A stretch of DNA of 64,000 nt, taken from the NCBI GenBank assembly GCA_963668715.1, contig OY764960.1, forward strand, positions 3,255,423 to 3,319,422, read 5' to 3'. Position numbers and translations under genes: made by a program. Under the pieces are notes generated by a model, which was not told where the DNA came from, did no database searches, and worked only from the letters and a program-made list of their open reading frames with translations. This DNA comes from Bacteroidales bacterium (GTDB lineage: Bacteria > Bacteroidota > Bacteroidia > Bacteroidales > VadinHA17). Positions 11,195 through 11,461 of the stretch are shown here, in pieces (the first letter of the stretch is position 1; each line of letters opens with the position of its first letter).

Positions 11195-11461
11195 CTCTTA
11201 GCCCGGCATTCCAGTCGGCAGTCGGCAGCCCACAATCCGCAGTCAACAATGTTAATTGGTTAATTGGTTGATTAGTTAATTTGTTAATTGGTTGATTAGT
11301 TAATTTGTTAATTAGTAGTGATTTAATACTATTTAAACTCATTCTCAACTTCATTCAACTTTCAGTTCCACTACTCACTATTCACTATTCACTCAGAAAT
11401 CCACAATGTTAATTGGTTAATTAGTTAATTAGTAGGTGTTTAGTGCTATTTAAACATAACC
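11195..11461. repeat. composite low-complexity block: CAGTC heptamers, TTAATTGG octamers (C-free), TAAAC/ATTCACT modules (nearly G-free)
   Basis: 11248-11328 has no C (81 nt). 11321-11407 has only two G. 11405-11445 has no C. Short periods of 7, 8 and about 10 nt are visible by eye. Confidence 0.85.

Follow-up and report, generated by a model that had tools for sequence, protein, structure and literature searches.

Two adjacent mosaic simple-repeat elements in a Bacteroidales genome, one of them split by an IS110/IS1111-type insertion sequence with a predicted bridge RNA

The stretch of DNA analysed here, called the window in what follows, covers 64,000 nucleotides of a Bacteroidales bacterium (contig OY764960.1, positions 3,255,423 to 3,319,422). 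The region of interest, first flagged at 11195-11461, lies in a spacer of 2.5 kb, with a hydrolase gene at 9735-10802 on one side and a SusC-like gene at 13298-16315 on the other. It consists of two adjacent mosaic simple-repeat elements, which we designate E1 (11203-11399) and E2 (11400-11474 plus 12920-12997). E2 is interrupted by an insertion sequence (IS) of the IS110/IS1111 family, which lies on the minus strand at 11475-12919 and is 1,445 bp long including the AG core (CT on the plus strand) present at both ends. The window also encodes SusC/SusD, a beta-lactamase-fold protein and an AraC regulator. A first-pass annotation, made from the letters of the DNA, had described the flagged stretch as one member of a family of structured low-complexity elements; its base counts, its arrays and its 18-nt junction were confirmed on recheck, with two corrections.

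All modules of E1 and E2 are given here as read on the plus strand. E1 opens with degenerate CAGTC-type heptamers (11203-11247; CAGTCGG CAGTCGG CAGCCCA CAATCCG CAGTCAA), among which Tandem Repeats Finder (TRF) recovers CAGTCGG 2.4 times at 11212-11228. They run into a C-free module of 81 nt built from TTAATTGG-type octamers (11248-11328), where TRF reports a period of 8 in 7.9 copies at 11251-11313 and, over the same positions, a 24-nt higher-order repeat with 97% matches. The third and fourth modules (11329-11399) are G-poor TAAAC/TCAAC words and ATTCACT heptamers, with CACTATT heptamers reported by TRF at 11369-11393, and the 87 nt from 11321 to 11407 hold only 2 G. The left half of E2 (11400-11474) starts with the exact junction 18-mer TCCACAATGTTAATTGGT (11400-11417) and continues with TTAATTRG octamers (listed by TRF as GTTAATTA at 11408-11433, within 41 nt lacking any C at 11405-11445) and TAAAC words that extend to the CT core, while its right half (12920-12997) contains AAACTTTTTAAAC words followed by T-rich, A-poor heptamers. 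With the IS taken out, the plus strand of E2 reads ...TCCACAATG TTAATTGG TTAATTAG TTAATTAG TAGGTGTTTAGTGC TATTTAAAC ATAACCATCTAAAC TCATT-CT-AAAC TTTTTAAAC TTAATCC TTTTGTT GACCGTT GACCTTT GGTCGTT AGTCTTT TGTCGTT....

The stretches 11400-11474 and 12920-12997 are halves of one mosaic element, E2. The first-pass annotation had listed 12925-12997 as a further family member; it is the other half of E2, cut from 11400-11461 by the IS, and the split element was counted as two members because the transposase open reading frame (ORF) had been overlooked. E1 is an intact, diverged copy directly upstream of E2: it has the junction with one mismatch (TCAACAATGTTAATTGGT, 11243-11260, plus strand), a longer octamer array and TAAAC/TCAAC words after the spacer that follows the octamers, and this spacer matches that of E2 at 27 of 31 positions. 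As a separate observation, the whole E1-E2-IS block is flanked by two direct copies of an element of about 190 nt (10925-11113 and 13043-13230; 78% identical), the right one some 70 nt before the SusC-like gene. It contains a hairpin GGATGGGAAAC...GTTTCCCATCC (RNA fold z -3.4, no Rfam match), its core motif CATGAAACAGGATGGGAAACA also precedes a gene by about 40 nt in a related contig (L034, 4115-4142), and the element is a candidate leader or regulatory RNA.

Exact copies of the junction 18-mer occur at 11400 and 63702. When up to 3 mismatches are allowed the window holds 3 matches against 0.19 expected, a number reached by 0 of 100 shuffles. Similarly, the base-free runs of 81 nt (11248-11328) and 103 nt (21123-21225) exceed the maximum of 78 seen in 200 shuffles (mean 37). 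The 18-mer had been described as sitting each time at the boundary between a CAGTC-type array and TTAATT-type sequence; the positions of its copies stand, and at 11400 the array upstream is made of ATTCACT heptamers, not of CAGTC-type ones. In a collection of species-representative genomes the 18-mer gave 7 matches, all in unrelated taxa and in non-repetitive context, which we read as chance matches. The sole further true copy found, with one mismatch and the same module order, is on a metagenome contig (L008), and the 18-mer is lineage-restricted. The junction plus heptamer pattern had zero matches among JGI metagenome contigs, so the lineage is rare in that collection.

A non-repetitive junction and a module order are common to E1, E2, the L008 element and a further element of the window, E6 (described below). 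The order runs from GC-rich heptamers through ACAATG, TTAATTGG-type octamers and a spacer to TAAAC words, in some cases followed by T-rich heptamers. In addition, E2 and L008 have an identical TAAAC block of 22 nt, although the L008 locus differs from that of the window and matching is confined to the mosaic parts. The proposal that these are copies of a structured family rather than random repeats is therefore upheld as far as the shared junction, the spacer after the octamers, the 22-nt block and the module order go.

Concerning the IS, its minus-strand ORF (11778-12833; 351 aa) encodes a transposase/recombinase with the domains DEDD_Tnp_IS110 (PF01548, 4e-17) and Transposase_20 (PF02371, 6e-23), and scores 212 bits, against a cutoff of 140, with the NCBIfam model NF033542, 'IS110 family RNA-guided transposase'. 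Over 60 related IS loci were gathered by look-ups and one metagenome scan, with 29 distinct insertion sites having at least 40 nt on both sides. The copy on L008 is 99.7% identical with different flanks, and those on L009-L011 are 82-83% identical. The termini AG|ATCGTATGTTTGAAAA... (left) and ...TTTTCAACATAGA|AG (right), which can also be written AG|ATCGTATG... and ...CATAGA|AG, stop at the same point in every copy for which both ends were found, with the AG core at both ends in all copies and no target duplication beyond it. The left end (LE) is short (12834-12919; about 86 nt) and the right end (RE) long (11475-11777; about 303 nt), and each carries, 4-5 nt from the terminus, one arm of a sub-terminal inverted repeat, TATGTTGAAAAA at 11479-11490 pairing with TTTTTCAAACATA at 12902-12914 over 12 of 13 positions with one indel; the arms were read by eye and are unlisted by a gapless repeat finder. 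A short LE, a long RE that houses the non-coding RNA, and sub-terminal inverted repeats of 7-17 bp are typical of the IS1111 group (PMC11208160). Taken together, the domains, the long RE with its RNA, the sub-terminal repeat and the core-only duplication place the element in the IS110 family, IS1111 group, as judged from sequence. In the plasmid database its nearest IS110 relatives are about 33% identical or less.

Ends at 11451/12932, as drawn from the alignment with L008, were dropped, given that the conserved termini across variants stop at the AG core. Two further peculiarities of the gathered loci should be mentioned. L045 (~100-130) and L051 (~345-375) show an IS right end, then 12-13 nt, i.e. 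one array unit, and then an IS left end, a pattern of either tandem IS copies in adjacent units or assembler closure on a repeated flank. In L024, L025, L027, L030 and L031 one IS variant has reshuffled pairings of left and right flanks, for example a SodB-side left flank paired with two different right flanks, which indicates recombination between IS copies or assembly chimeras.

The right end of the IS folds far better than its shuffles (z -5.6). An RNAalifold consensus from 24 variants comprises two similar stem-loops with internal loops and 31 pairs, 7 of which show compensatory changes. The RNA is assigned to the transposase strand because the G-U pairs of the consensus are possible on that strand alone. 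The structured part lies at 11523-11729, 3' of the transposase gene, and the predicted RNA measures about 140 nt. Stem-loop A (11657-11729, minus strand; stem GAGAGAGACCGC/GCGGCUCUCUC) would carry the target-binding loop. Its 5' side UAAACUCAUUUU is complementary to AG plus AATGAGTTTA, UAAACUCAUU on that side being the reverse complement of the right flank AATGAGTTTA, and its 3' side ..GUUUAGAC (GUUUAGA) equals left flank plus core, GTTT-AG-A. Stem-loop B (11587-11656, minus strand) is conserved and is assigned as donor-binding because both sides of its loop match the IS ends: the 3' side UAUAGAAG equals RE terminus plus core, ATAGA-AG, and the 5' side, given as CGAUCU and also as ..GAUCUU, is the complement of the core together with the start of the LE (AG-ATC). 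This loop matches ATAGA-AG and AG-ATCG in all variants. A third conserved hairpin of the right-end non-coding region (11523-11573, minus strand) has 20-nt arms that are 90% complementary, with a compensatory change in L011. An earlier assignment, with a TT core and stem-loop A as the donor loop, was dropped when six, and then more than 25, variants showed loop A to be variable and target-matching. Rfam returned only a tRNA-Pro for the whole window at gathering score, and no credible match for the IS RNA, the arrays or the ~190-nt element at E <= 1 within 10800-13400.

The rule relating guides to flanks holds in 28 of 28 guide/site combinations, which comprise about 20 loop sequences. Examples of guides (left/right) are AATT-AG/GTCAAT, found in L012, ACAT-AG/GCACAAT, found in L024, GTTG-AG/AAAGTTG, CTTT-AG/CCCCTT and GTAG-AG/ACGCATA. 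Cognate guides and flanks match on average at 13.8 of 18 positions against 9.1 (sd 1.7) for 730 non-cognate pairs, only 1.9% of which reach the cognate median. Guides and flanks hence covary across related IS copies. Read on the CT strand, the long 5' guide equals left flank plus core and pairs with the bottom strand; for the short 3' guide the partner is the top strand, over the core and the right flank. Polarity and core usage are then as in IS621. Two internal loops with paired guides, and a target loop that covaries with the target, are what a bridge RNA is expected to show, and the right end is accordingly predicted to encode one.

The site used by the IS on the plus strand is TCTAAACTCATT-CT-AAACTTTTT, inside the TAAAC-word module of E2; with both flanks written around the AG core it takes the form GTTT-AG-AATGAGTTTA, and the target word can also be written AAAGTTTAG|AATGAGTTTAG. 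Among the functions proposed in the first-pass annotation, that of IS target sites is borne out, with an IS110/IS1111 element in the TAAAC-word module and a guide loop that matches its flanks. Two more places in the window match the reconstituted 20-nt target, against 0.02 expected, and both are unoccupied. One, AAAGTTTAGAATGGGTTTAG, with 1 mismatch and a near-perfect 20/21, is in a third mosaic, E3 (21181-21200, plus strand). The other, GAAGTTG-AG-AATGAGTTTAA, with 3 mismatches, is in E1 (11333-11352, minus strand) and is an exact match to GUUGAGAC, the guide found in sister IS variants L009, L011 and L039. Words of the type found in the target module also occur on the opposite strand in the 4080-4730 spacer, where four GTTTAA words (TGTTTAAA in 3.9 copies) lie at 4566-4597 in a C-free run of 50 nt.

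Arrays are enriched where this IS clade inserts. A tandem array is present within 12 nt at 20 of the 29 distinct insertion sites, compared with 23 of 400 random positions and, as a control, 74 of 400 random intergenic positions of the window. Among the arrays that were hit are (AGATCAATT)n, (CACAATAG)n, (AGGGAAT)n, (GGCCCCTT)n, (CACATYAG)n, (AATGAGTTGAG)6, the latter in L039, and (GGTTGAGA)14. In L009 (3557-3700, ~14 units) and L039 (2861-2940, ~7 units) the IS occupies the very first unit of an extended target-like run, whose units all follow on the side of the right end; the two L009 units that adjoin the IS are guide-like 11-mers and the remainder 8-9-mers.

Such arrangements raise the question of whether the recombinase itself makes or expands the word arrays, by bridge-RNA-guided unequal exchange or one-ended RE reactions, and so builds its own landing pad. 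Every unit of an array such as (AATGAGTTGAG)6 is a complete target, extra copies of the target word number 29 on the RE side and 1 on the LE side, and the L009 run, with its two guide-like 11-mers next to the RE and shorter units behind, would fit. However, once the 12 guide-specified nt are removed, the bias shrinks to 4 versus 1 at 5 informative sites (p = 0.375, not significant), which makes it a lead rather than a result. Moreover, the word array of E3 has no adjoining IS, the CAGTC, TTAATTGG and TTTTGTC modules are alike in character and are not targets of this IS, and the comparable report (bioRxiv 10.64898/2026.08.14.744561) concerns units of at least 50 bp. We therefore hold this origin of the arrays to be highly unlikely. 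A related proposition, that arrays and target loops co-evolve, with the recombinase resizing guide-matching word arrays via target-target or one-ended RE-side reactions into a self-made safe harbour, is quite unlikely as well; if it were true that the recombinase remodels arrays, this would be a new source of simple-sequence DNA.

Mosaics are found at four further places in the window, and all of them are intergenic, as are all TRF arrays, which lie between ORFs. E3 (21071-21260, minus strand) starts at the xylA stop codon and passes from (GCAGAGC)n through TAAAC words to (TTTTGTC)n, the octamer module being absent; it contains a C-free run of 103 nt and a T-free run of 62 nt, and its TAAAC words have a period of 11 (TRF), with a spacing of ~10-11 nt. 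E4 (52027-52174), which has a minus-strand gene on either side, consists of short arrays of TTTTGT-type, GAAGnCn and CTTCCGA/CTCCCGA heptamers, and E5 (60791-60846) of A-rich AAAAGAY heptamers ending in GCAGAGTGTTAATAATTTG, which lie 58 nt upstream of a tRNA-Pro(GGG) gene (60658-60733, minus strand). E4 and E5 are looser relatives, with the vocabulary in common and not the order. E6 (63483-63847, plus strand) is bounded by a 16-nt inverted repeat, AATACTGGAATGATGG / CCATCGTTCCAGTATT, with one mismatch, and leads from ~30 CAGTCCR heptamers through the exact 18-mer and an AT-rich centre to inverted GACTGAR heptamers. It has higher-order repeats of 14 and 82 nt, which, together with the 24-nt one of E1, show matches of 96-100% (TRF); because of these repeats, slippage or recent duplication is suggested. 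A 100-aa ORF (MMGSPQSTVSSPQSAV...) at 63492-63794 is probably not a gene: the CAGTCCG unit is stop-free in every frame of that strand, and the ORF is not conserved in L008 or L037.

The window holds two further repeats. A minimal CAGTC-type array, (CCAGTC) in 2.7 copies, is located at 42673-42688, about 15 nt past a stop codon. At 59749-60537 a 72-nt unit with a palindrome GGAGATTGCTTCGCTTCGCTCAGCGATCTCC is repeated 11 times head-to-tail at 98% identity, and the long ORFs across it (59615-60547, minus strand; 59768-60535, plus strand) are probably artefacts.

Mosaics with a similar module order and different units are also present in related genomes. The best matches of the window xylose isomerase are Bacteroidales and Tenuifilaceae proteins from metagenome-assembled genomes, at no more than 86% identity. 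In a related species (L034-L036) the spacer downstream of xylA has (GCAGGGR)n, then seven copies of the ATTCACA-type ATTCAACA, then CTAAAC words, all on the plus strand, that is, other units in another orientation at the orthologous position; in another species (L037/L038) the same spacer is without array. Further spacers of relatives combine word arrays with heptamer arrays. The module order is not universal, since in L043 and L009 the words have the other orientation with respect to the GCAGGG heptamers. L037/L038 have, downstream of xylA (~11420-11500), a related single unit of the 72-nt type. Relatives also harbour a second repeat family, REP-like (repetitive extragenic palindrome) GC-rich hairpins GAACCGAGCCC...GGGCGAGCTCG, which often adjoin arrays (L034 ~8390 and ~18740; L037 ~4470 and ~11510; L039 ~1330).

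The ends of E6 bear on whether the mosaics are non-autonomous mobile elements similar to miniature inverted-repeat transposable elements (MITEs), the junctions and anchors then belonging to the mobile unit and the arrays being internal expansions. Apart from the 16-nt inverted repeat and the inverted heptamer arrays of E6, this explanation draws on the motif GGAATGATGG of the E6 ends, which also adjoins arrays in L008, L037, L039 and L053, on the copies at unrelated loci, and on orthologous spacers downstream of xylA that have the element in opposite orientations or not at all. Yet E1, E2 and E3 show neither a terminal inverted repeat (TIR) nor a target-site duplication, the anchor itself resembles a short 8-mer array, GGATGATT GGAATGAT, no partner transposase was identified, and ends are not definable from the few copies; on balance we consider mobility of this kind unlikely. 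The motif in its longer form, (AATACT)GGAATGATGG, lies at 63483-63498 and 63832-63847 in the window, at ~1654-1663 in L008, 4413 in L037, 1396 in L039 and 1527 in L053, and in L039 a REP-like hairpin is seemingly inserted inside it, between direct TGGAA repeats.

Folding separates E6 from the other mosaics. Against shuffles, the single-strand fold z values are +0.42 for E1/E2, +1.38 for E3 and -0.62 for E4, i.e. no better than shuffles, and -5.1 for E6, the exception, with its 16-nt inverted repeat and inverted CAGTCC/GGACTG arrays. Self-pairing is avoided in E1/E2, E3 and E4 because each module excludes one base. A hairpin or REP-like nature was accordingly rejected as a general property, only E6 being folded. 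The arrays are no CRISPR array either, the units being contiguous and without spacers.

Unfolded, strongly strand-asymmetric modules, all of them intergenic, could also suit functional DNA sites, namely iteron-like arrays to which a nucleoid or regulatory protein would bind cooperatively, or intrinsically curved or readily melting DNA that would insulate neighbouring operons. The easily melted or unstructured DNA proposed in the first-pass annotation agrees with the fold values of E1/E2 and E3. The recurrence of TAAAC words every ~10-11 nt in E3 and the CAAT-N4-ATTG within the junction agree with such a role. It is weakened by units whose sequences vary between loci of one genome and between species, by word spacings of 8-14 nt elsewhere, by an orientation that is not conserved relative to flanking genes, and by an 18-mer not conserved beyond the lineage, so that we regard it as highly unlikely. 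The iteron arrays considered in the first-pass annotation fail on the same variability and orientation and on the lack of replication or partition genes nearby: the units are degenerate and of 7-11 nt, where origin iterons would be identical repeats of 17-22 bp beside a rep gene or DnaA boxes, and the neighbours are a hydrolase, SusC/SusD and xylA.

Predicted lack of structure would equally be compatible with arrays that act as RNA, as elements of untranslated regions that recruit proteins with affinity for single-stranded RNA, a role put forward for the TAACTGA heptamers of Beggiatoaceae, whose start-codon-proximal repeats were suggested to be S1, Csp or Csr-type sites (PMC4679880). Here, though, arrays occur in both orientations between co-directional genes (E1/E2 versus E3 in the window; L034 versus the window at xylA), and their distance to the start codon ranges from ~65 to >300 nt, which leaves an RNA-level role very improbable indeed.

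We thus favour, as the probable explanation, a pair of mosaic simple-repeat elements whose junctions go back to descent and whose arrays go back to slippage or unequal exchange, one of the two having been hit by a bridge-RNA-guided IS. It starts from what can be read directly, i.e. the anatomy of the mosaics, the IS boundaries, the complementarity and covariation of guides and flanks, and the enrichment of arrays at insertion sites. E1 and E2 would be adjacent copies of a lineage-restricted, non-coding mosaic element, a chain of arrays (GC-rich heptamers, unique junction, AT-rich octamers, TAAAC words, T-rich heptamers) in which the non-repetitive junctions would descend from a shared ancestor and the intervening arrays would grow, shrink and homogenise via slipped-strand mispairing or unequal exchange. 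E2 would then have been invaded by the 1,445-bp IS, encoding 3' of its recombinase gene a predicted two-loop bridge RNA whose conserved loop would pair with the IS ends, as donor, and whose variable loop would pair with both target strands around the CT/AG core. Related IS variants seem to have retargeted the guide loop to the unit of their host's own array, and the mosaics would therefore be repeated, gene-free landing sites for an RNA-guided IS. This is their only demonstrable role; the arrays presumably have no sequence-specific cellular function.

Several points weigh against this explanation. The source genome is represented by the ~64-kb window alone. The arrays are identical in L034, L035 and L036, three metagenome assemblies of one relative, and hypervariability is thus not demonstrated. 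The module order that recurs across species, the GGAATGATGG anchor and the exclusion of one base per module hint at constraint beyond neutral slippage. We infer the transcription and activity of the bridge RNA from sequence features, and the activity of the IS from an intact ORF, intact ends and the second copy at 99.7% identity. Finally, the flanks of the window and L008 insertions are near-identical over ~14 nt on the LE side and ~23 nt on the RE side. We read this likeness as homologous target modules because the empty site is present in E3, the alternative being a slightly larger mobile unit.

Regarding known systems, the members of the IS1111 group of IS110 elements encode a bridge RNA (seekRNA) in the right end (Durrant et al. 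2024, PMC11208160; Hiraizumi et al. 2024, PMC11208158). The present IS agrees with them in its DEDD/Ser recombinase domains, short LE and long RE, sub-terminal inverted repeats, core-only duplication and two-loop RNA, in that both guides of each loop include the dinucleotide core, and in the pairing of the left guide with the bottom strand and of the right guide with the top strand. It differs in forming a Bacteroidales clade without an Rfam family match, whose plasmid-borne relatives are only ~33% identical, and in targets that are mostly short tandem-array units, not REP hairpins or transposon ends. The 28 natural guide/site combinations and ~20 loops, together with the 351-aa recombinase, the ~140-nt RNA and the AG/CT core, amount to a specificity table for a Bacteroidota IS1111-type element.

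The mosaics themselves consist of head-to-tail units in multiple intergenic copies, and so qualify as simple-sequence arrays, which have units of 1-11 nt. Cyanobacterial short tandemly repeated repetitive (STRR) sequences are arrays of heptamer direct repeats. TAACTGA heptamer repeats occur in Beggiatoaceae, Cyanobacteria and five Bacteroidetes, at times with several kinds per spacer and with no established function (PMC4679880). Both resemble our mosaics in their intergenic 7-nt tandem units, several per spacer, and in their sporadic phylogeny, whereas the mosaics add a recurring chain order, conserved unique junctions, units of 8-11 nt and one module that is the target of an RNA-guided IS. 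With MITEs they have in common the dispersed copies and, in E6, a 16-nt TIR at ~365 bp in length, and they depart from them in the tandem-array interior, the absence of a TIR in E1-E3 and the lack of any target-site duplication found. At expanded IS110 loci, non-coding units of 50 bp or more have been described to pile up in tandem, preferentially on the LD/RE side (bioRxiv 10.64898/2026.08.14.744561); here, too, tandem repeats lie beside an IS110-family element and mostly on the RE side, but the units are of 7-14 nt, occur also far from any IS, and have a side bias that is not significant.

Function-less heptamer arrays in a few Bacteroidetes (PMC4679880), as well as bridge RNAs and their location in the right end of IS1111 elements (PMC11208160), were already known. 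What is new is that chained arrays with conserved junctions form a recognisable element family in a Bacteroidales lineage, that one mosaic module is the cognate target of a putatively RNA-guided IS, and that guide loops retargeted to array units can be viewed across a whole clade. A puzzling low-complexity region is explained in this way as two tandem mosaics, one split by such an IS, and intergenic short tandem arrays are linked with bridge-RNA-guided recombination, two subjects usually treated separately. The closest parallel is with REPs and bacterial interspersed mosaic elements (BIMEs), preferred targets of IS110-family elements such as IS621 and ISPpu9 (Tobes & Pareja 2006, as cited in PMC11208160). 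REPs fold, being imperfect palindromes, whereas E1/E2 and E3 are strand-asymmetric and unfolded, only E6 being hairpin-like; in both cases dispersed intergenic mosaic repeats would serve as gene-free landing sites for IS110-family elements. The comparison suggests that, as safe places to land, this IS clade prefers array units that are present in many copies and free of genes, in much the way that REP is used by IS110 elements of Proteobacteria.

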